Shown: positions 18,319-33,573, counted from the stretch's first letter. The stretch is 64,000 nucleotides of DNA from Candidatus Latescibacterota bacterium (GCA_963707635.1 OY970173.1:96001-160000), one strand, 5' to 3'. Numbers and translations: made by a program. The notes: a model not told the origin generated them from the sequence alone.

Positions 18319-19982
18319 TCAGTCGCGCGGCTCCTCGCGCCCGTCGATGTCGAGGCCGGCATCGCGCCAGCGACGTTCACCGATGGCGGTGCACAACACC
18401 AGGACGAAGATGGTCCCCACGATCAGAGCCATAGCCCCCTGGCGCAGGGGCTCGTCGGCTACCGACTGAATCCACGACCCCAGGTTCTGCCAGCAGAAGG
18501 CGGTGAACACCACCACCAGGTAGGTCGGCGTCACGTACTTCATGATGAACTTGTAGAAGACCGGGATCCGGATCTGCGCGCCCTCGTGCGCTTCCTTCCA
18601 TGCCCCGCTCGATGCCGAACACCCAGCTGAAGCAGATGATCTGCACCATCGCGAGCACGAAGATCAGGAACGTGCCGACCCAGTCGTCGATCGTCGACCA
18701 GAAGATGCCGTCCTTGCTGTAGTACATCACCAGGAACGAGCCGATGAGGCAGACGCCCACCATGAACGCCGTCGCCTTCTGCTTGCGTCCAGCCCAGCGA
18801 TTCCTTGAAGAACGCCAGCGCCGGGCTGATACATCGAGATCGAGCTGGTGATCGCTGCCAGGAACAGCATGAAGAACCAGATCGCGCCGATCGACGTTGC
18901 CGAACGCACCCATGTGCGCGAACACGACCGGCAGCGTGGTGAATCCGAGTCCGAAGGTGCCGCCCTGGACGGCGCCGATCATGTCGGCGGTGCCGAGGAA
19001 CACGAACGCGGCGGTGATGGTGATCAGCCCGCCGAAGCCGACCTCGAACAACTCGTTGGTGGCCGACGCGGTCAGCCCCGAGAGCACGACGTCGTCCTTC
19101 TTCTTGCAGGTAGGACGCGTAGTTGATGATCACGCCGAAGCCGACCGACAGGCTGAAGAAGATCTGACCGGCGGCCGCCAGCCAGGTCTGGGGATTGCCG
19201 AGCGCGTCGAAGCTGCGGGTTCCACATGTAGCGCGAGGCCGTTGATCACGTTCTGGTCCGGGTGCGCCGGGTCCGGCGTGCCCGAGGGTCAGCACACGCG
19301 CCCAGCACGATCAGCGCGCACACCGCCATCGCCGGCATCGCCCAGGACACGAACTTCTCGATGCCCTTCGACAGGCCGCGGTAGACGAGCCAGATGTTCA
19401 GGGCGAAGGTGATCGCCCAGAAGACGAAGGTTTCGATCGACCCGCCCGCGATGACCCCGTTCTCGGCTCGCGCCCGTGAAGTCGCTGTAGAACTGCGCCG
19501 GCGCGCGCCGTCTGGTCGGCGATCGGCGCGGTCGGCGTCGATGCCGATGCCGCCGGTGAGGTAGTGCCAGAAGTACCCGAGGCACCAGGCTTCGATGTAG
19601 GTGTAGTAGAAGGACACCGCCAGCGGAATCAGGACGCCGATGACGCCGAGGTAGCGCGCGATCGCGCCCGCCGCCGACGACGCCCAGGATCGAGGGCGCC
19701 GAGTGGAAGCCCTTGCGGCCGCCGTAGCGTCCCATCGTCCATTCGGCCCAGCCGATCGGGATGCCGAGAAGCAGGAGCGCGCAGAAGTACGGGATCATGA
19801 ACGCGCCGCCGCCGTTCTGCCGCCGCCTGGCCCGGGAAGCGCAGGAAGTTCCCGAGGCCGACGGCCGACCCGGCGACGGCGAGGATCACGCCGAGGCGCG
19901 TTCCCCATTCCTCGTGGCTGTGGGCCTGATGGTGCGCCTCGTGTGCGTCCGCCGCATGCTTGCTCGTGGTTTCTTTCGCCAT
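18319..19982 (-). CDS. Sodium-dependent transporter, NSS/SNF family (many frameshifts)
   Basis: [68 protein letters not shown] spread over successive frames. Confidence 0.88.
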
Positions 19983-20100
19983 TGTCGCCACCGTGGTTAA
20001 AAGAAACGATGGTCCCCGCGAGTCTTCGCGCGGATCCATTCATGCTGGGGGCAGATGGTATGGGCGGCCTCGCCTGCCGGTCAACCGCCAGTTTGCCGGC

Positions 20101-22328: not shown

Positions 22329-23629
22329 ATGCGTCCAACTGCGTGCTCGTCGTCTCGCTGCTCCTCGCCGCACCGCTCGCGAACGCGCGTACCGTCGTTC
22401 ACGCGGGCCGTCTCATCGACGGCCGCAGCGCCGCCGTGCGCACGCAGGTGTCCATCATCGTCGACGGGGGCAAGATCGCCGACGTCGTCGACGGGTTTGT
22501 GGCGGCGCAGCCCGGGGACTCGGTCATCCCGCTGGAAGACCACACCGTCATGCCGGGGCTGATGGACATGCACGTGCACCTGACCGGTCAGCTTTCGCGC
22601 ACGTCGTACTCCGAAGAGTTCTATCTGAACCCCACCGACCTCGCGTTGCACGCGGCGCACTACGCGCGGCTCACGCTGCTCGCGGGCTTCACCACCGTTC
22701 GCAACGTCGGCGACGACGGCATGACGACCGTGTCGCTGCGCAACGCCATCCGCGCGGGGTACGCGGAGGGCCCCCGCATCTTCACCGCCGGCAAATCGAT
22801 CGCGACCACGGGCGGCCACGCGGACCCCACCAGCGGCTGGTGCCAGGCGCTCGAGGGCGACCCGGGTCCGGCCGAGGGCGTCGTCAACGGCGCCGACGAC
22901 GCGCGCAAGGCGGTCCGCCAGCGCTACAAAGAAGGCGCCGACCTGATCAAGATCACGGCCACCGGCGGCGTGTTGAGCCTGGCAACGAGCGGCGACAACG
23001 CGCAGTTCACCGACGACGAGCTGCGCGCAATCGTCCAGACCGCGAAAGACTATGGCTTCACGGTGGCGGCGCACGCGCACGGAGCCGAAGGGATGAAGCG
23101 CGCCGTCAACGCCGGCGTCACGTCGATCGAGCACGGCACCTACATGACCGATGAAATCATCAAGCTGATGAAGAAGAACGGGACGTACTACGTCCCCACC
23201 ATCGTGGCCGGGGTCACGGTGATGGAAAAGGCGCAGGAGGAGGGTTACCTCCCGGCCATCGTCCGCCCCAAGGCGGCGCGCATCGGCCCGCAGATCGAGG
23301 GCACGTTCACGCGCGCGTACCGGGCGGGAGTCAAGATCGCGTTCGGCACCGACAGCGGCGTATCGCCGCACGGCCAGAACGCGCGCGAATTCGAACTGAT
23401 GGTGAAGTGCGGCATGCCGCCGATGACCGCGATCCAGTGCGCCACCATCCAGGCGGCGAAGCTCCTGCGCGTGGACGACCGGCTCGGGAGCGTCGAGAAG
23501 GGCAAGATCGCGGACCTGGTGGCCGTGGCCGGAGACCCGACCGAGAACATCGCGCTCATGCGCGACGTGAGATTCGTGATGAAGGAAGGCGTGGTCTACA
23601 AGCGCGACGGCCGGCCGGTCGCGCGCTAG
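22329..23629 (+). CDS. Secreted metal-dependent amidohydrolase (prolidase-like); probable 1-nt loss just after the ATG
   Basis: [50 protein letters not shown]; the signal peptide is restored by adding one base near 22343. Confidence 0.88.
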
Positions 23630-23630
23630 T

Positions 23631-25772
<2,142 letters not shown>

Positions 25773-25788
25773 GGGGCGCGGCGTGGAT

Positions 25789-26283
25789 TCAGGCGGGGCG
25801 TTGCCGGTGGCGGTGGGTCTCGTAGGCGTTCGCGAGCCAGTCCGCGACTTTCCTGACTTCGACCTCCGTGCGCGCGTCGAAGGCGTCGATCTCGTGGCTG
25901 TCGATATCGATCTGCGCGAAGATGGTGTCGCCCTTGCGAATCAGCACCACCAGTTCCGAGCGCGTGGCGCTCGAGCAGGCGAGGTAGTTCGGTTCTTTCG
26001 ACACGTCGGGGACGTTCTTGTCGCGCCCTTCGGCGACCGCACTCCCGCACACGCCCTGACCGATCGAGATGAATACGTGGTCGGTGGGCGCGCCGATGAA
26101 GGGACCGAGTCGCAGCACGCGGTCGGGAAACAGCTCGTAGATGCCGGTCCAGTGGAAGTCCGGGTGGGCGTGGTGCAGGTACTCGACCGCGCTGGAAAGC
26201 ACGGCGTCGAAATTCACGCCGGAGGCGGCGAGTTGGTCGAGACGCTGGCAGATTCCTGCGCCGTCCAGGGTCGGCCCGGTCAT
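25789..26283 (-). CDS. GAF-domain protein, free methionine-(R)-sulfoxide reductase (MsrC/YebR)-like
   Basis: WTGIY, LGPF, GQGVCG, YLACS, SELVV, IDIDS. Confidence 0.8.
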   Translation of the reverse strand: MTGPTLDGAGICQRLDQLAASGVNFDAVLSSAVEYLHHAHPDFHWTGIYELFPDRVLRLGPFIGAPTDHVFISIGQGVCGSAVAEGRDKNVPDVSKEPNYLACSSATRSELVVLIRKGDTIFAQIDIDSHEIDAFDARTEVEVRKVADWLANAYETHRHRQRPA

Positions 26284-26367
26284 GCGCACCCTCCTAAGTC
26301 GCTGGGCGGGATGTGGTTCGACCCGCGCGGTGACGCCGCGCCGGGGTGACGCGCGGTCAATCCGCAA

Positions 26368-27198
26368 CTAGCATGCCAGACGTTTACCGATCGCGTAGTA
26401 CACGTTGCGGGGGTAGCTGATGCGCTCACCGAAGCGCTGCCCGAACACCTCGCGCGCGCGGGCGCGGTACCGCTCCCACGACGGGCCGTCCAGGAGTGCC
26501 AGGAGCGCCCGGCCGCTCGCGCATACCTCGCGGGCTTCGAGGTACTGCTCGACGGTCATGGCGAAGGTGAACGTGCGGGTTCCGGTGTCCACGGGCTCGA
26601 AGCCGGCTGCCGCCAGCACCGATTCCAGCCCTCCGGGCTTCGAAAGCATCGCTTCGCCGGGGAGCACGCACGCGGCGGCGGACACCGCCACCTCCGCGGA
26701 AACGAACTCGTGGACGACGCCGGTCCACGCGCGAGCGAGGTCGTCATCGGACGCCGCCCACGCGCTCAAGCCGATCCGGCCCGCCGGCCGGAGCACCCGC
26801 CCCATCTCGCGCACCGACGCGACGGCGTCGTCGACGTGCGTGAGCACGAAGGCCGAAAGCACCAGGTCGAAGCTCCCCGCGACGAACGGCAGGTACGGGA
26901 GCATGCCGACCACGGTGAGGTCGATCCCGCCCCGCTGCGCGGCTTCCAGCATCGGCGCCGACGGATCGACGGCGACCACGCGGCCCCCGGCGCCCACCGA
27001 GCGGGCGGCCGCCCGGGCCACCGCGCCGGTGCCGGCTCCCACGTCGAGCACGTGATCGCCGCGCGCCGGCGCCGCGATCGCCAGAAGCTCGCGGGCCGGC
27101 CGATCGAACATGAGCGGCGCGTTGAGCCGCTCGTATACAGCGGCCGCGTCGTCGTAGGAGCGAGCCCGGCGGATCAGACGCTCGTCGAAGGAGTTCAT
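26368..27198 (-). CDS. Class I SAM-dependent methyltransferase (UbiE-like)
   Basis: VLDVGAGTG, LPF..GSFDLV, RVLRPAG. Confidence 0.88.
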   Translation of the reverse strand: MNSFDERLIRRARSYDDAAAVYERLNAPLMFDRPARELLAIAAPARGDHVLDVGAGTGAVARAAARSVGAGGRVVAVDPSAPMLEAAQRGGIDLTVVGMLPYLPFVAGSFDLVLSAFVLTHVDDAVASVREMGRVLRPAGRIGLSAWAASDDDLARAWTGVVHEFVSAEVAVSAAACVLPGEAMLSKPGGLESVLAAAGFEPVDTGTRTFTFAMTVEQYLEAREVCASGRALLALLDGPSWERYRARAREVFGQRFGERISYPRNVYYAIGKRLAC

Positions 27199-27211
27199 CG
27201 TATGGCCGCGG

Positions 27212-27859
27212 TCAGTTGGATCGATCCGGCGAGAGCGCGGTGATCTCTTGCTCGAGCTCGGCGAGAGGCAGCGGCCCCGTGTGGCGCGCCACCGCGGTCC
27301 CGTCGGGAGCGACCAGGTAGAGGGTCGGCAGCACCTTCACCCGCAGCCGTTCCCACGCCGCGCTCTCGTTCGCGTCGACGACGATCGGATAGCCGACCGG
27401 GTGCTTCGCAAGGAACTTGCGCACCTTCTTTTCCCGGTCGCTTCCCTGATCCACGGATACGCCGATCACCACGACGTCGCCGCCGTATCGCTTCTGCAGC
27501 GCGTCGAGATCGGGCATCGACTCGACACACGGCTTGCACCACGTTGCCCAGAAGTCGACGAGCACGATCTTGCCGTGGAGCCGGGAGGTGCTGATCGTGT
27601 CCCCGGCGAGCGAAACAAGCGTCATCTCGGGAAACGGCCCGGGCACGAAGACGTACGCGTACGGATCCTGGTCGAATTCCGCGGCGCACTTCGCGGAACA
27701 GAAGGAGAGCTCGCGGCCGTCCAGCTGTCGGGTGGCAACGGCCTCTTCTTCCCGGGTCTCGCCCCCCAGCGCGCAGACCGCGCACAACGCTTTCCCGGCC
27801 CGCGCGCCGTCCGCGACCGCCGAGACGACTACGAGGAAAAGTGCGATCCACGCCTTCAT
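27212..27859 (-). CDS. Exported YHS/TRASH-like metal-binding domain fused to a TlpA-family thiol-disulfide oxidoreductase
   Basis: Start MKAWIALFL (signal peptide); CAVC...DGRELSFCSAKCAAEF..DP..Y; GKIVLVDFWATWCKPC...LPTLYLV. Confidence 0.85.
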   Translation of the reverse strand: MKAWIALFLVVVSAVADGARAGKALCAVCALGGETREEEAVATRQLDGRELSFCSAKCAAEFDQDPYAYVFVPGPFPEMTLVSLAGDTISTSRLHGKIVLVDFWATWCKPCVESMPDLDALQKRYGGDVVVIGVSVDQGSDREKKVRKFLAKHPVGYPIVVDANESAAWERLRVKVLPTLYLVAPDGTAVARHTGPLPLAELEQEITALSPDRSN

Positions 27860-28494
27860 CAGAACCCTCCCGCGATTGAAATCCCGAACGTGTCCATCCA
27901 CACCGCCATCAGGCTGACGCCTATCCTCTCGCCGAACCAGCTGGCGAGAACGTGCGAGCGCTGGCCGTCGTACATGTAGCGCGTGGAGAAGCCGCGCCAC
28001 ACGAACCATTCCGCTCCGAACGGATAGTTGAACCCGTCGTCCCACTCCGAGTAGTTGAGACTCCCATACACCGAAACCGGAATCCGGGGCGCCAGCTTCG
28101 ACACGGTCAGATAGTACGACTGCGTTCCCTCCGGCGACCCGATCCGGTCCGAGCTGGTCCCGAGGAAGGCCGCCGGCCGGCGCCCGGTTTCGGTCAGGAG
28201 GAACACGCTCGCGAGCGGGACGACTTCGCTGACCACCGGATTGTACTCGACCCCGATCTGGGCGCGCGGGTGAACCCGATAGTTCGCCGTCAGCCTCCAG
28301 CGCGGACGCTCCTCGTCCGTGTCGACGTAGCGCGCCGAGAACGACCAGGTGGTTTGGATTCCGCCCCCCCGGAGCGGCGCGCCTTCGCCGGGTCAGCCGC
28401 TTCAGGTGGGGGTCTGTGACGTCGGCGGCCCGGCGCTCGCGGGAACGCACCACGCCACGAGGAGGATGAGAGATGTCAGTTGAAGCAGGTGCAT
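27859..28494 (-). CDS. Putative UxxU double-selenocysteine outer-membrane beta-barrel protein (in-frame TGA at 28402-28404 and 28393-28395)
   Basis: One continuous frame: MHLLQLTSLILLVAWCVPASA-GPPTSQTPT-U-S-G-U-PGEGAPLRGGGIQTTWSFSARY...QIGVEYNP...GTSSDRIG...FGISIAGGF; hairpins directly 3' of the TGAs; stop overlaps the next ATG (TGATG). Confidence 0.7.
28361..28390 (-). other. Candidate bacterial SECIS hairpin(s)
   Basis: CGGCG-AAGGCG-CGCCG (28390-28375) starts 11 nt after the first TGA; CCGCTCC-GGG-GGGGCGG (28377-28361) has a G-rich loop 22 nt after the second TGA. Confidence 0.45.
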
Positions 28495-28511
28495 GAAACG
28501 ATTCGCCTCGC

Positions 28512-30821
28512 CTAGAGACGCCATGATACCCCGAAGAGCCAGTTGCGTCCCGCCATCCGGTAGCGCGCGACCTCTTCGTAGACCGTGTCGAGCAGGTTGC
28601 CCACCCTGGCGCTGACCGTCACGCGGGGAGTGAGGCTGAACTGCGCGTTGGCGTTGAGCACCGAGAACGCGTCCGGCGCCTGTCGGGGATAGAGAAATAC
28701 TTCGTCGATCGCGCTTCGATAGCGCGCGTCGCCGTGGAGCAGCCAGCGCTTCCACAGCACGTCGAGTGAGAGATTCGCGGAGTGTTTGGGCCGGTACGGG
28801 AGATAGTCGTCGGTCCGGCCGGGTGACTGGTCCCGCGCGTCGAGATACGCGTAGTTCGCTGAGGCCGTGAGTATTCCCAGGCGCGACGTGACCGTCGCCT
28901 CGATTCCCTGCATGAGCGCGTCGTTCAGGTTGCGCACCTGATAGACGGTCACGCCCAATGACTCGGCAATCTGTTCGAAGTAGATGAGGTCTTCGTAATC
29001 GTAGCGGTACGCGGCCACATCGAGGTCGAACGCCGGCGCGGGATTCCAGCGCGCGCCCACCTCCGCCGAGGCGACGATGTGTTCGGCGCCGAGGTCCGGG
29101 TTGGGCACGAGGTCGATGCCGCCGCCGATCTCGCGCTCCTGGAAGAGCTCCGCGATCGTGGGCGCCCGGAACGCCTGTCCGAACAACGCGCGCAGCGCCA
29201 GCTCCGGCCGGACCGTCCACACCAGCCCCAGCTTCGGGCTCACCTGATCGAGCGTGCGGACCCCGACCAGATGATTCCAGTCGTAGCGGGCACCGATGGT
29301 GGCGGCGAGGCTGCGGACGATGGTGATGTCGTCCTGCACGAACAGCGCGTAGTTGTTGATCTGGTGGTCTCCGTAGAGCGTCGTGTCCGGCGACGACAGC
29401 ACGTAGTCGAGCTGAAAATCCCCCCCCGCGACCAGGTGGTGCCGCTCGCCCCAGCGGAGATCACCCTGGCTGATCGCCCCGATTTTGTCCCCCAGGATCT
29501 CGGTGGCGAAACCGAAGGGCTCGTTGCCGGGCAGCTCGCGATCGGGGTCGTTCGGGTTGAAGGTCGAACGCTGCTCGTGGTGGAAGTAATACGCGCGGGT
29601 GGAGTAGCGGGTCCGTTCGCTGAAGCCCGAATAGTGCAGGTCGGCGCTGCCGTAGTCCTTGTGCTGGCGGTCGTCGGTGAAGGAATCGCGCACCTGCAGG
29701 GGTTCCGCCGCGCTCAACCAGGCGTGCGGATAGTCGTTCTCCGCGCGGCCGCCGCCCAGCGTCAGCTCGAGCTTTCGATGCGAATCGACGTCGCAGACGA
29801 TCTTGCCGAACAGGTCGTAGAACGCGTAGGCGGTGTTCTCGCTGAAGCCGTCCGATCCCTTCCAGCTCGCGCTCACCAGATAGCGCAGGTCGGGCGCGAA
29901 CGCGATCGGACCGGAGACGTCCGCGGTGACCTCGCCCTGCAGCGGCGTTTCGTCGGTGTAGCTGACCGGACTCTTTTCGAAAAACCCCAGCTTGAAGTCG
30001 AGCCTGCCGACCAGCGAGTCGCTGGGCCGGCGGGTGATCACGTTGACGACGCCGCCCATCGCCGTCGAGCCGTAGAGGCTCGAGAACGCTCCTTTCACGA
30101 TCTCGACGCGATCGATGAACTGCGTCGGGACCAGGCTCCAGAAGGCGCCGCCGGTGTCCGAAGTCAGCGCCGGGCGTCCGTCGATGAGCAGCAGCACGCG
30201 ATTCCCGACGCCGCCGCCCGCAATGTCGGAACTGCCCCGAATCTGGATCGACTGCACGGAGATGCCGGTGGTCCGAAAGGCGTTGAGGCCGGAAACGGCT
30301 TCGATCGATTGATCGAACGTGATCGGCGCGCGGCGCGCAATGTCGTCCTGGTCGACCACCTCCACGCTGGCGGGCGCCATGCGCGCGGTCTGCTCGACGC
30401 GCGTGGCGGTCACGATCACCGGGTCGGTCGTGATCGCGGACGCCTCGAGCGCAATGTCGACGCGAGTGGTGTCGCCGGCGTCCACCCGCACGCCCGGCCG
30501 GGAGAACGCGGCGTAGCCGATGCGAGAGATGGTCAGACGGTACACCCCGGGGGGCAGCTCACGTATCACGTAGTGGCCGCGCGTGTCGGAGGTCGCGCCG
30601 CGTCTGGTCGAATCGATCCGGACGGTGGAGAAGCTCAACCCGGCCCCGGTCGCCGCGTCGGTGACGCGTCCCACGATCACTCCCAACGAAGCGGGCGACG
30701 GGCGGGTTGCGCCCGCCTGGGGGAACGCGCGCGGCGCGCCGAGGCCCAGGCCCGTGAGCACGCATGCAGCTCCGGCCACAGCCCGGACTCGGCCGCCGAT
30801 GCGATCGGTCGCGGCGCGCAT
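28512..30821 (-). CDS. TonB-dependent receptor with N-terminal carboxypeptidase-regulatory-like domain
   Basis: GRVTDAATG, VIVTATR, plug IDRVEIVKGAFSSLYGSTAMGGVVNVIT, FRAPTIAEL, NLLD..Y...GRNWLFGVSWRL. Confidence 0.92.
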   Translation of the reverse strand: MRAATDRIGGRVRAVAGAACVLTGLGLGAPRAFPQAGATRPSPASLGVIVGRVTDAATGAGLSFSTVRIDSTRRGATSDTRGHYVIRELPPGVYRLTISRIGYAAFSRPGVRVDAGDTTRVDIALEASAITTDPVIVTATRVEQTARMAPASVEVVDQDDIARRAPITFDQSIEAVSGLNAFRTTGISVQSIQIRGSSDIAGGGVGNRVLLLIDGRPALTSDTGGAFWSLVPTQFIDRVEIVKGAFSSLYGSTAMGGVVNVITRRPSDSLVGRLDFKLGFFEKSPVSYTDETPLQGEVTADVSGPIAFAPDLRYLVSASWKGSDGFSENTAYAFYDLFGKIVCDVDSHRKLELTLGGGRAENDYPHAWLSAAEPLQVRDSFTDDRQHKDYGSADLHYSGFSERTRYSTRAYYFHHEQRSTFNPNDPDRELPGNEPFGFATEILGDKIGAISQGDLRWGERHHLVAGGDFQLDYVLSSPDTTLYGDHQINNYALFVQDDITIVRSLAATIGARYDWNHLVGVRTLDQVSPKLGLVWTVRPELALRALFGQAFRAPTIAELFQEREIGGGIDLVPNPDLGAEHIVASAEVGARWNPAPAFDLDVAAYRYDYEDLIYFEQIAESLGVTVYQVRNLNDALMQGIEATVTSRLGILTASANYAYLDARDQSPGRTDDYLPYRPKHSANLSLDVLWKRWLLHGDARYRSAIDEVFLYPRQAPDAFSVLNANAQFSLTPRVTVSARVGNLLDTVYEEVARYRMAGRNWLFGVSWRL

Positions 30822-30828
30822 GCGAGGA

Positions 30829-31329
30829 CTACGGCGCCAGGGCGAGATCGGCGACGAAGTCCAACCCACTGCGGTGGATATTCGACCCCGCCAGATTCAG
30901 CGAGGTGGGGCCAGGGGCCTGCGGCGCGATCTTGCTGCCGTTCCAGGCGACTCCCACGCTGTCCACAAAGGTCCAGTACATCCCCAGCAGGGTGGCGCTG
31001 CCCGGAACGGACGGGTTGCGCCAGCTCACGTAAATCGCGGCGTAGCTGCCTTCCTCGAGGCCGGTCAGGCTGAAGGTGTACTCGCTCACGCCGGGCGCGA
31101 TGGGGTTGGTGTAACCATCCGGCGGACCATCGGGCACGAGGTCGGCCGGCAGGACGGAGTATATCGACACCTGGACATCGCCCGTCGCGGGCCAGGAACC
31201 CGTGTTGACGAACGTCACCTTGCCCTCGACGCTGGCGGGGCCGGCAGGTTGCGCGGGGTTGTCGTCGCCACACGAGCTGATCATCGTCGCCACGCCCATC
31301 ATCGCCAGGAACAAGAACATGCGTCTCAT
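30829..31329 (-). CDS. Lipoprotein of unknown function, first gene of the TonB receptor operon
   Basis: Lipobox ISSC; 7 nt upstream of the TonB receptor start. Confidence 0.75.
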   Translation of the reverse strand: MRRMFLFLAMMGVATMISSCGDDNPAQPAGPASVEGKVTFVNTGSWPATGDVQVSIYSVLPADLVPDGPPDGYTNPIAPGVSEYTFSLTGLEEGSYAAIYVSWRNPSVPGSATLLGMYWTFVDSVGVAWNGSKIAPQAPGPTSLNLAGSNIHRSGLDFVADLALAP

Positions 31330-31452
31330 GGAGTTTCCCCGTGTTAAGGTGGAAGTGTTCAATTGTCTGCGCGAACCGCCAGAAAAGACATTGAACTCTG
31401 GGTCACGATCGCATAGGTTTAGTCAGGTTTGCCAAATAAAGCAGAGAGCCCC

Positions 31453-32088
31453 ATGTTTCGTCAAGGTACCACTGCCGAAGAGACCCGCTGGCTGACCCTA
31501 ACGGAAGCGGCGGAGGCCCTCCGGGTGCATCCGACCACGCTCCGCCGCTGGTCCGATTCGGGTCAGATCCCCGTGTTCTTGACCCCCGGCGGCCACCGGC
31601 GGTTCGCCGCGTCGGACGTCAAGCACATGTCGGTGCGCCGGCATGCCGTGCGGCGGGTCGGCCCGGTCGAACGGATCTGGGCCGACCAGGCGCTTACACT
31701 GGCCCGAAAGCAGCTCGCCAATCAGGAGCAGGAGCGCTGGCTCAAGCGGCACGACGGTCCCGCGCGGGATCGCAACCGGCAGATGGGCCATCAGCTCATG
31801 GCCCTCATCCTCGAGTACGTGACCGGCGAGAACGACGACGAGCGCCCGGTGCGACAGGCGCGCTCCATCGGTGTCCAGTACGGCCACGCGTCGCGCGAGC
31901 TGGGCCTGCCGCTCACCGACGCCCTCCAGGCCGCGATGTTTTTCCGCGACACGCTCACGACCTCGGCGGTCGCGCTGCCCGGCAACGTGCGCATCCCGAT
32001 CGGATCGCAGGTCCAGCTGGTGACGCGCATCAGCCGCATCGTCAACGAAGTCCAATTGGGTGTGGCGGACGCGTACGCGCCGTCGTAG
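31453..32088 (+). CDS. Xis/MerR-like HTH (HTH_17) regulator with an all-helical C-terminal sensor-like domain
   Basis: WLTLTEAAEALRVHPTTLRRWSDSGQI...TPGGHRRF; divergent from the TonB receptor operon. Confidence 0.8.
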   Translation: MFRQGTTAEETRWLTLTEAAEALRVHPTTLRRWSDSGQIPVFLTPGGHRRFAASDVKHMSVRRHAVRRVGPVERIWADQALTLARKQLANQEQERWLKRHDGPARDRNRQMGHQLMALILEYVTGENDDERPVRQARSIGVQYGHASRELGLPLTDALQAAMFFRDTLTTSAVALPGNVRIPIGSQVQLVTRISRIVNEVQLGVADAYAPS

Positions 32089-32148
32089 TATTGCGCCCCT
32101 GCCGGACCCGCGGCCCTCGCGCCGTCCGGCCCATCGCCGAAAAAATCA

Positions 32149-33573
32149 ATGTGCGGAATTCTGGGATACTGCGCCCGGGAATGGGATCCGGGCCTGGAGA
32201 AGTTCTTCGGCCTGCAGGGATTCAACCTCCAGCACCGGGGCCAGGAGAACTTCGGCGCGACCTACAGCAATGGGAAGAAGTTCTCGCACTTCAAGGACCG
32301 CGGCCTGGTCTCGCAGGTGTTCACCAAGGAGCGCCGCGAGCACTTCTCCGAGACCCGGCCGCTGATCGCGATCGCGCAGACGCGCTACGCCACCGCCGGC
32401 GGCACCGACGCGATCTCGGCGCAACCGCACTGGATGACCCTGCTCGACGGCTTCTACTCCAACGCCACCAACGGCGACCTCCCGCTCCTGCAGCGCGAGA
32501 TACGGGACCTGGAGAACTCCGGCACCGTGATGCTCTCGGGCAACGACGGCGAGGTGATTCTCAAGAAGATCCTCCACGGCGCGCGCGAGAACGGCGGCAA
32601 TCTGGTGGCGGGCATCCGCCGGCTGATGGAGACCACGCCGGGCGCCTATTCCGGGTGCCTGATGACCCTCACCGAGCTCTACCTCTACCGCGACCCGCAC
32701 GGGTTCCGGCCGCTCTATTTCGGCCGCTGGCGCGACGCCGTCGTCTTCTCGTCGGAGTCGTGCGCGTTCCACGAGACCGACGCCCACATCGAGCGCGAGG
32801 TCTACCCGGGCGAGGTGATTCGTTTCGACATCGAGGGCAACCGGACCCACACCCAGGTGGTTCCCACCCATACGCCGCGGCAGCAGTGCATCTTCGAACC
32901 GATCTATTTCGCGCGCCCCGACAGCCGTGTCTTCGCGGACACCAAAGAGGTGGGACATTTCCGGTACCTGCTCGGGAGCCAGCTCGCCGACGAGCATCCC
33001 ATGCGCGACGCCGCCGTTGTGCCCGTCCCGGATTCCGGGCGCTACGCCGCCAACGGGTACGCGGGGCGCTCGGGTCTGCCGCTGCGCGAACTGCTCGTGC
33101 GCAATCCCTACATCCCGCGCACGTTCCAGATCGCCGGGCAGGCGAATCGCGAGGACCTCGTCCGGCTCAAGTTCACGGTCATGCACTCGCTGCTGCGCCA
33201 GTACCGGCGCTTCGTCATCGTGGACGACTCGCTGGTGCGCTCCACCACGCTGCGCATCCTCATCGCCATGATCCGCGACGCCGCCGGCGAAGCCGGGATC
33301 GACCCGCGCGCGGTGGAAGTGCACGTTCGCGTTGCGTCTCCGCCGATCATCGGGTGCTGCTACTACGGCATCGACACGCCGGAGCAGAAAGAGCTCGCCG
33401 CCGCGAACGTCACCATCGACGAGATCGCGACGTCGATCGACGCCGACTCGCTGGCCTACCTCTCGCTCGCGGGCCTCGACGCGGTGGCCGCCGAGTTCTC
33501 GTCCCCTGAACAGTTCTGCCACGCCTGCTTCACCGGGCGCTACCCGACCGAGTATCTCCCCCGGACCCGTTGA
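32149..33573 (+). CDS. purF: Amidophosphoribosyltransferase
   Basis: MCGI, LQHRGQE, RDPHGFRPL, CIFEPIYFARPDS, PVPDSG, VDDSLVRSTT, CYYGID, CHACFTGRYP. Confidence 0.9.
   Translation: MCGILGYCAREWDPGLEKFFGLQGFNLQHRGQENFGATYSNGKKFSHFKDRGLVSQVFTKERREHFSETRPLIAIAQTRYATAGGTDAISAQPHWMTLLDGFYSNATNGDLPLLQREIRDLENSGTVMLSGNDGEVILKKILHGARENGGNLVAGIRRLMETTPGAYSGCLMTLTELYLYRDPHGFRPLYFGRWRDAVVFSSESCAFHETDAHIEREVYPGEVIRFDIEGNRTHTQVVPTHTPRQQCIFEPIYFARPDSRVFADTKEVGHFRYLLGSQLADEHPMRDAAVVPVPDSGRYAANGYAGRSGLPLRELLVRNPYIPRTFQIAGQANREDLVRLKFTVMHSLLRQYRRFVIVDDSLVRSTTLRILIAMIRDAAGEAGIDPRAVEVHVRVASPPIIGCCYYGIDTPEQKELAAANVTIDEIATSIDADSLAYLSLAGLDAVAAEFSSPEQFCHACFTGRYPTEYLPRTR

Follow-up and report, generated by a model that had tools for sequence, protein, structure and literature searches.

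A barrel protein with two predicted selenocysteines and its YHS-TlpA partner in a Candidatus Latescibacterota bacterium

The minus strand of a 64,000-nucleotide (nt) stretch of DNA from a Candidatus Latescibacterota bacterium (GCA_963707635.1 OY970173.1:96001-160000, referred to as the window) carries six genes and a hybrid histidine kinase gene at 23631-31329. The six encode a lipoprotein-like protein, a TonB-dependent receptor, a small barrel protein with two in-frame TGA codons, a TlpA-like protein with a YHS domain (YHS-TlpA), a methyltransferase and a GAF protein. Which of these genes belong together, and what might a barrel with two residues encoded by TGA do? The evidence pointed to a pair, the barrel and YHS-TlpA.

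The barrel gene and its two TGA codons

Read with TGA as selenocysteine (Sec, U) the barrel gene encodes a signal peptide, the sequence PT-U-SG-U-PGEGAPLRG, a linker and a barrel ending in Phe. The pattern TGA-N6-TGA-CCN-GGN-GA was present in 48 of 49 non-redundant barrel loci, with the single miss at a contig end; thus the TGA codons are not a product of chance. Both codons were invariant in all 50 aligned copies, which come from several phyla. There were 747 database homologues of the barrel, and most of the 120 listed were 121-173 amino acids (aa) long and cut after the motif. A profile search yielded homologues with Cys, in which APT-CAGC-AGE aligns residue for residue with the Sec motif. 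CAGC occupies the motif site of P0167, P0169, P0181, P0200, P0221 and of fusion proteins, and the Cys forms with a named source are from Armatimonadota. The P0167 barrel, with Cys at both Sec positions, was 29% identical to the window barrel (E 1e-28).

In the source genome selA, selB and selD scored over cut-off and a tRNA-Sec was found; selA was also present in all 22 other barrel-carrying genomes tested. The TGA pair is followed by a hairpin with a stem of 7 base pairs (bp) and a 3-nt GGG loop, at a distance of 31 nt from the first UGA and 22 nt from the second, in a 41-nt segment with a folding energy of -13.5 kcal/mol. These values lie within the published model of the bacterial selenocysteine insertion sequence (SECIS), for which section 5 of PMC13188914 gives a loop of 3-9 nt starting with G, a stem of 4-16 bp, a distance of 16-37 nt from the UGA and a minimum free energy of -7.5 kcal/mol or lower. 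Of 350 alignment cells 98.6% were paired, with compensatory changes at five of the seven pairs. None of 500 shuffles matched this pairing, and controls with the segment slid along were 28-66% paired. A single SECIS hairpin would presumably decode both UGA codons.

The near-universal presence of selA in relatives (56 of 61) makes its co-occurrence there weak evidence. The window hairpin lies within coding sequence, its stability did not exceed that of shuffles (z 0.9-1.3), and one of four segments had it as the minimum-energy fold. A single change inherited within a subfamily of 15 accounts for much of the covariation. The TGA codons might instead be true stops, in a pseudogene or between a short peptide and a headless barrel, or be read as Trp. 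In favour of this, most of the database homologues listed are truncated after the motif and two carry W at both sites. Yet it is hardly credible in view of the invariance of both codons across several phyla, the signal peptide encoded upstream of both, the homologues with Cys at both sites and the tRNA-Sec of the genome; moreover, four of the seven genes at the locus themselves terminate in TGA. Taken together, the UGA pair of the barrel almost certainly encodes two selenocysteines in a U-S-G-U motif.

Database protein P0141 has C-V-G-W at the motif site; judged from the protein sequence only, its W may represent a UGA rendered as Trp, in which case the protein would be a CxxU intermediate. 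The selD gene (L003, G000:C1:1039917-1040846) has an in-frame TGA and probably encodes a selenoprotein itself.

The hydrophobic leader of the barrel, which ends in ASA, was judged by eye to be a signal peptide, leaving a mature part of 190 aa. AlphaFold2, with U modelled as C, gave 12 strands with a predicted local distance difference test score (pLDDT) of 92.3 for the mature part and a predicted template-modelling score of 0.86. After homologues of full length, both Sec and Cys forms, had been added to the alignment, the pLDDT of the motif-bearing N-terminal arm rose from 34-39 to 74-87, and the arm is predicted to be ordered. The top Foldseek matches were the outer-membrane barrels FapF (E 4e-5), NanC, KdgM (template-modelling score 0.62/0.68, 4.0 A) and COG4313, all at 6-15% identity. 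The barrel had no sequence match in the PDB and no NCBIfam match at E up to 10. Language-model look-alike clusters (0.96) bore the label YjbH (PF06082) on 83% and 14% of their members; the YjbH profile matched none of the 96 barrel members (hmmscan, E 0.5). Invariant residues were His181 (96 of 96 alignment rows), Asp176 and three Gly, several Arg and acidic residues were nearly invariant, and the terminal Phe was present in 91% of the rows. We predict from the model that the barrel is a secreted, small 12-stranded outer-membrane pore, with His181 as a candidate third metal ligand.

The barrel and YHS-TlpA as a pair

The YHS-TlpA protein consists of a signal peptide, a YHS/TRASH-like domain with four Cys (C26, C29, C54, C58) and a TlpA-like thioredoxin domain (WC108KPC111). 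C26, C29, C54, C108 and C111 were kept in all 79 homologues, C58 in 70 and the CKPC motif in 72 of them. The AhpC-TSA and Redoxin profiles scored over cut-off, while TlpA proper (NF047696) was not reached with 67 bits against a curated cut-off of 230. By its WCxxC thioredoxin fold the protein classifies as a putative exported TlpA/ResA-like reductase. The domain labels of the original prediction held, with Pfam support for the TonB-dependent receptor, thioredoxin-like, methyltransferase, GAF and kinase domains; the weak point is the YHS label, for which the window copy gave 19 bits, below the Pfam cut-off of 30.3. Precomputed PF04945 assignments were present on 63 of 81 YHS-TlpA homologues.

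TlpA was scored as a partner when encoded on the same strand within 1.5 kb of the barrel. A TlpA domain was found in this position in 43 of the 49 loci, in both gene orders. The remaining six were two contig ends, one case with YHS-TlpA on another contig and three genomes without YHS-TlpA. Among 61 relatives the barrel occurred in 12 and full-length YHS-TlpA in 11, all of these within the 12; in the twelfth the contig ends inside the barrel. In a sample of 251 genomes of another class the barrel occurred in 20 and YHS-TlpA in 19, again all barrel carriers, and in the twentieth TlpA is fused in frame to a UPVU-barrel. A single open reading frame of 496 aa at L075:1501-2988 (minus strand) encodes a signal peptide, a CxxC...CxxxC domain without family, TlpA, UPVU and the barrel.

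The location of the YHS domain varies: TlpA, the barrel or both proteins may carry it, and TlpA lies either downstream or upstream. YHS was fused to the barrel in 5 of 11 CxxC/CxxW proteins scanned. In the Cys-form locus L055 a YHS-less TlpA directly follows the barrel, and in a second subfamily (L062-L074, L076) a degenerate YHS-like domain precedes U-P-G-U and a YHS-TlpA gene lies upstream. At L016:4792-6549 two intact UxxU barrel genes stand in tandem with a Cys-rich secreted peptide of 107 aa (HGPP...LRI end) between them. The genomes with the family were labelled Krumholzibacteriia, Thermoanaerobaculia/Acidobacteria, Eisenbacteria, Calditrichaceae and Poribacteria, with the Cys forms in Armatimonadota. 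Related genomes are not independent samples, yet common descent by itself hardly accounts for such differing orders and fusions across phyla. The barrel-TlpA coupling of the original prediction is borne out by the adjacency, the matching genome distributions, the YHS swaps and the TlpA-UxxU-barrel fusion. Thus comparison of sequences strongly supports a unit of inheritance of two genes.

Possible roles of the pair

The reading we favour, at somewhat less than an even chance, is that TlpA keeps the selenol pair reduced so that the barrel binds a soft metal, probably copper, at the pore. Electrons would pass from DsbD, which is present in the source genome, to TlpA and on to the Sec pair of the barrel, and we infer that TlpA reduces a diselenide there directly. 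On the periplasmic face the N-terminal arm would fold into the pore or onto it. The metal would be bound by the two Sec, perhaps together with the invariant His181, and the four-Cys YHS domain would receive or deliver the ion. Capture and hand-on of scarce copper would be the favoured direction over export. According to PMC6669012, TlpA reduces Cys pairs in ScoI and in CoxB, which then bind copper, and the copper site of ScoI consists of two Cys and a distant His; in PMC4626032 the Cu-specific response of one enzyme is attributed to a YHS domain. The original prediction had cast TlpA as the dedicated reductant in a soft-metal system; its coupling to the barrel stood, while the metal pathway by way of the outer genes did not.

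Several findings speak against copper binding by the pair. The conserved R55, R65, R67, R117 and K133 could equally suit an anionic substrate. YHS-TlpA is not obligatory, as G064, G080 and G082 have the barrel but only generic TlpAs. No third gene recurs beside the pair outside the source genus, and metal-related neighbours were seen once each: L015 has efflux outer-membrane and adaptor genes and L019 a Fur family gene. A hint towards copper is the Cys-rich leader ending in RAPP/RGPP that precedes the Cys-form operon of L055; it resembles copper-regulated CruR leaders, which are described as having CxxC 45 residues before a C-terminal RAPP (PMC9426467). Yet the L055 leader failed the CruR/DUF2946 test, with no PF11162 or other Pfam hit and no CxxC. 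This leader comes from the one full-length Cys-form locus examined; a RAPP-type leader was present at none of 32 Sec-form sites, where the sole pattern match looked like a shadow frame.

An extended form of the proposal, which we consider doubtful, makes the pair the prototype of a selenol-based relay across the outer membrane. A minimal porin would carry a catalytic diselenide/diselenol arm that a dedicated periplasmic reductase recharges, and would reductively capture copper or reduce another outside acceptor without cytochromes or TonB energy, with one SECIS hairpin decoding both UGA codons of the motif.

The main rival to soft-metal binding is a heme-free electron conduit or reductase, in which electrons would run from DsbD through TlpA and the Sec pair to outside disulfides, polysulfide, selenite, tellurite or arsenic oxyanions or oxidants, with the YHS domain as a metal site of structural or regulatory kind. 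The barrel has conserved basic residues and its closest folds include the anion porins KdgM and NanC; a dedicated, even fused TlpA suits catalytic turnover; U/CxxU/C is a classic redox motif (section 7 of PMC13188914); and ExtI, a predicted 12-segment porin, affects selenite and tellurite reduction (PMC5877670). Yet a pure redox relay would not need a YHS domain, and most arrangements retain one, be it on TlpA or on the barrel; the L075 fusion has another four-Cys domain in its place. The invariant His suggests a metal site, and cytochrome or rhodanese genes did not recur as neighbours of the pair. We regard an electron conduit as rather unlikely.

Next in rank is a redox- or metal-gated small porin, in which the Sec pair would move a plug that TlpA resets and some other solute would be transported. 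The ordered N-terminal arm predicted on a compact 12-strand barrel fits this idea, as do the FapF and COG4313 channels among the fold matches, which have N-terminal plugs. Two Sec with a covarying SECIS would presumably be costly for a gate, however, and no transporter or catabolic gene recurs that would point to a solute; a gated porin is in our opinion improbable. It is followed by a pathway of all six genes, discussed below, and by the non-Sec readings of the TGA codons.

Neighbouring genes and known systems

The gene order and spacing given by the original prediction were reproduced exactly from gene calls: from the lipoprotein gene to the kinase gene the gaps were 7, 17, -1 (TGATG), 13, 84 and 16 nt (Table 1).

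Table 1. Features of the locus in window coordinates
Feature	Position	Strand	Description
lipoprotein-like gene	30829-31329	-	166 aa, Cys20 after hydrophobic leader
TonB-dependent receptor gene	28512-30821	-	769 aa; Pfam plug and barrel
barrel gene (core gene 1)	27859-28494	-	211 aa with TGA read at codons 31 and 34
first in-frame TGA (predicted Sec31)	28402-28404	-	invariant in 50/50 aligned copies; Cys in P0167
second in-frame TGA (predicted Sec34)	28393-28395	-	invariant in 50/50 aligned copies; Cys in P0167
SECIS-type hairpin	28361-28377	-	7-bp stem, GGG loop; covariation
His181 codon of barrel	27952-27954	-	His in 96/96 alignment rows
YHS-TlpA gene (core gene 2)	27212-27859	-	215 aa; start overlaps barrel stop (TGATG)
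class I S-adenosylmethionine-dependent methyltransferase gene	26368-27198	-	276 aa; variable neighbour
sigma-54-type promoter motif TGGCA-N6-TTGC	26364-26378	-	80 nt before GAF start, overlaps methyltransferase stop
fRMsr-like GAF gene	25789-26283	-	164 aa
PAS hybrid histidine kinase gene	23631-25772	-	16 nt behind GAF

The original prediction had combined the six genes into one trans-envelope metal or metalloid pathway. The tight gaps, an order kept in all five same-genus barrel genomes with long enough contigs and the lack of a convincing terminator (7 found, 4.2 ± 2.0 expected) favour it, and the genes from lipoprotein to methyltransferase may well be co-transcribed in the source genome. 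Yet the outer genes were found beside the barrel only in the source genus (TonB receptor 7, lipoprotein 6, methyltransferase 7, GAF 5 and kinase 5 of the 49 loci) and in none of 23 loci from outside it (L007-L025, L043-L046; several of them short). Within the genus an orthologue of the receptor was present in 15 of 16 genomes against 7 for the barrel. In 61 genomes, many of them incomplete, 8 had both receptor and barrel, 10 the receptor only and 4 the barrel only. The co-occurrence of barrel and TonB receptor that the original prediction called for thus amounted to 7 of 49 loci, and 10 of 18 receptor carriers lacked the barrel.

In five same-genus genomes (L047-L051) the TonB and GAF genes share a contig, and neither barrel nor TlpA separates them. 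The receptor is joined directly to the methyltransferase in L049, with a 2-nt gap, and to GAF in L050; in L047, L048 and L051 the slot is filled by unrelated genes. The methyltransferase occurs without the barrel in L048 and L049. Because the unrelated purF and helix-turn-helix (HTH) genes are equally syntenic across the genus, the conserved order is plain synteny. With the internal sigma-54-type promoter described below, a pathway of all six genes is very improbable, and the six-gene operon is ordinary local synteny. The remark in the original prediction that the outer genes may be incidental neighbours proved apt, as relatives keep them without the pair. Comparison of the genomes places the pair in a slot of variable content, with a lipoprotein-TonB unit found throughout the genus on one side and the GAF and kinase genes on the other.

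With or without the barrel pair, a membrane protein of about 250 aa without family (MDRTAIHYLP...; L005:1113-1853, L041, L048:7553-8300) also occurs in this slot behind the receptor. In two barrel-less genomes secreted proteins of about 1030-1050 aa occupy it on the opposite strand (L047:5791-8874, L051:3025-6180).

The TonB receptor had no conserved Cys, and none of the best 25 of its 34 NCBIfam matches reached the cut-off. Its identity as the cobalamin receptor BtuB was rejected at 181 against 599.7 bits; cobalamin riboswitches are commonly associated with BtuB receptors, and Rfam gave no match in 23000-33000. The lipoprotein, like the barrel, had no family match in Pfam and NCBIfam searches; its Cys20 was kept in five of six orthologues, the sixth having Cys one position earlier. 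An ArsM identity of the methyltransferase was likewise rejected (55.5 against 263 bits), and no Cys was common to all seven orthologues. The suggested downstream action of this enzyme in a metalloid pathway is therefore not supported, as it is not ArsM-type and has no conserved Cys set.

The GAF protein had Ta0848 as its best PDB match (E 1.6e-21), with C79 and C103 aligned to C60 and C84, and three Cys were kept in 13 of 13 relatives. Cys60 and Cys84 are reported as essential in Thermoplasma acidophilum fRMsr (PMC6211008). By sequence the GAF protein thus classifies as fRMsr-like of the two-Cys T. acidophilum type, and the label of the original prediction was confirmed by the retention of both Cys. 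GAF and kinase were conserved together irrespective of the barrel, closely spaced and preceded by the promoter motif described next in every genus member examined; GAF may act as a sensor for the kinase, and the unit could serve methionine-sulfoxide or redox signalling.

The motif TGGCA-N6-TTGC, which is the sigma-54 consensus, was present 60-95 nt before the GAF start in all 13 upstream regions (about 0.001 expected per region; one further locus was dropped as too short). The copy at 26364-26378 is the only exact match in the window, and rpoN scored over cut-off in the source genome. GAF-kinase is accordingly predicted to have its own sigma-54 promoter as a separate unit. The original prediction had named an internal promoter as a sign that the six genes are split, and this conserved motif is a candidate for one.

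Upstream of the lipoprotein gene a divergent gene (31462-32088, plus strand), 70-80% identical across the genus, encodes an HTH_17/MerR-type N-terminus and a helical C-terminus without family. In the intergenic region (31330-31461) the blocks AAAACTA, CGTGA and CCTTAAC were kept with small variations in seven aligned genomes, and the region is a candidate operator/promoter for the lipoprotein-TonB unit. Directly behind the HTH gene follows a gene (32149-33573, plus strand) which we take to encode a PurF-like amidotransferase; a second copy in the genome is 38% identical. At about 18400-20040 (minus strand) a gene appears broken by several frameshifts, either as a pseudogene or through assembly indels; from its motif it is presumably sodium-dependent transporter-like.

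The pair was compared with known systems. In the TlpA-ScoI/CoxB system of Bradyrhizobium diazoefficiens (PMC6669012) a periplasmic thioredoxin-like reductase also keeps a Cys pair reduced for copper; the window TlpA would presumably act on a two-Sec barrel in the outer membrane instead. Unlike TlpA of Bradyrhizobium, the window TlpA has a predicted cleavable signal peptide, a YHS domain, CKPC in place of CVPC, and 67 bits at a cut-off of 230. The outer-membrane selenoproteins GSU2204/MtrB-PioB (NF041027) and the TonB types FCYXU, CU, PUIUD and PCPU (NF049944-7) share Sec in an outer-membrane barrel and are missed by gene callers. The TonB-type models have about 685-700 positions, in contrast to the short 12-stranded mature barrel with UxxU found here. 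KdgM, NanC, FapF and COG4313/Pput2725 resemble the barrel in the predicted 12-strand fold but differ in sequence. We know of no Sec motif or TlpA partner in any of them.

The UxxU selenoproteins of the Prx-like thiol:disulfide oxidoreductase (PF00578), metal-binding protein (NF041115) and FmdB-family regulator types have two Sec three apart and CxxC homologues (PMC13188914 Table 1), but none is listed as a beta-barrel in the available part of that table and none matches the window barrel in sequence. The CxxC- and YHS-CxxC-barrels of Armatimonadota (P0167, P0204, P0273, P0297) are homologous, with the same motif position and, in L055, TlpA downstream; they have Cys for Sec and YHS on the barrel rather than on TlpA, and are labelled 'YHS domain-containing' or 'hypothetical'. 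ExtI of Geobacter sulfurreducens is likewise a predicted 12-segment outer-membrane barrel tied to chalcogen redox chemistry. It is set apart here by description only, as PMC5877670 confines it to Geobacteraceae and places its gene in a cluster with those of cytochromes and a rhodanese.

The barrel family was absent from NCBIfam 20.0, Pfam, the PDB, the available part of the 119-family selenoprotein table (PMC13188914) and the literature searched; the BSepDB family table and Haft and Tolstoy 2025 lay outside this comparison, and a listing there is possible. Sec outer-membrane proteins and UxxU motifs are each known; a minimal barrel that unites the two and has its own YHS-TlpA appears to be new.

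What the window itself contributes is the negative result for a wider operon, with the empty-slot genomes and the internal sigma-54-type promoter. The family adds an apparently uncatalogued double-Sec protein that is routinely cut by gene callers, and its gene is a compact model for two UGA codons decoded by one hairpin. The barrel-TlpA system is directly testable, since Cys forms occur in nature and one fusion joins both parts in a single chain. If the proposal is true, a redox-active Sec pair on a small pore together with a dedicated reductase would be a possible new copper entry or thiol-type electron route across the outer membrane.

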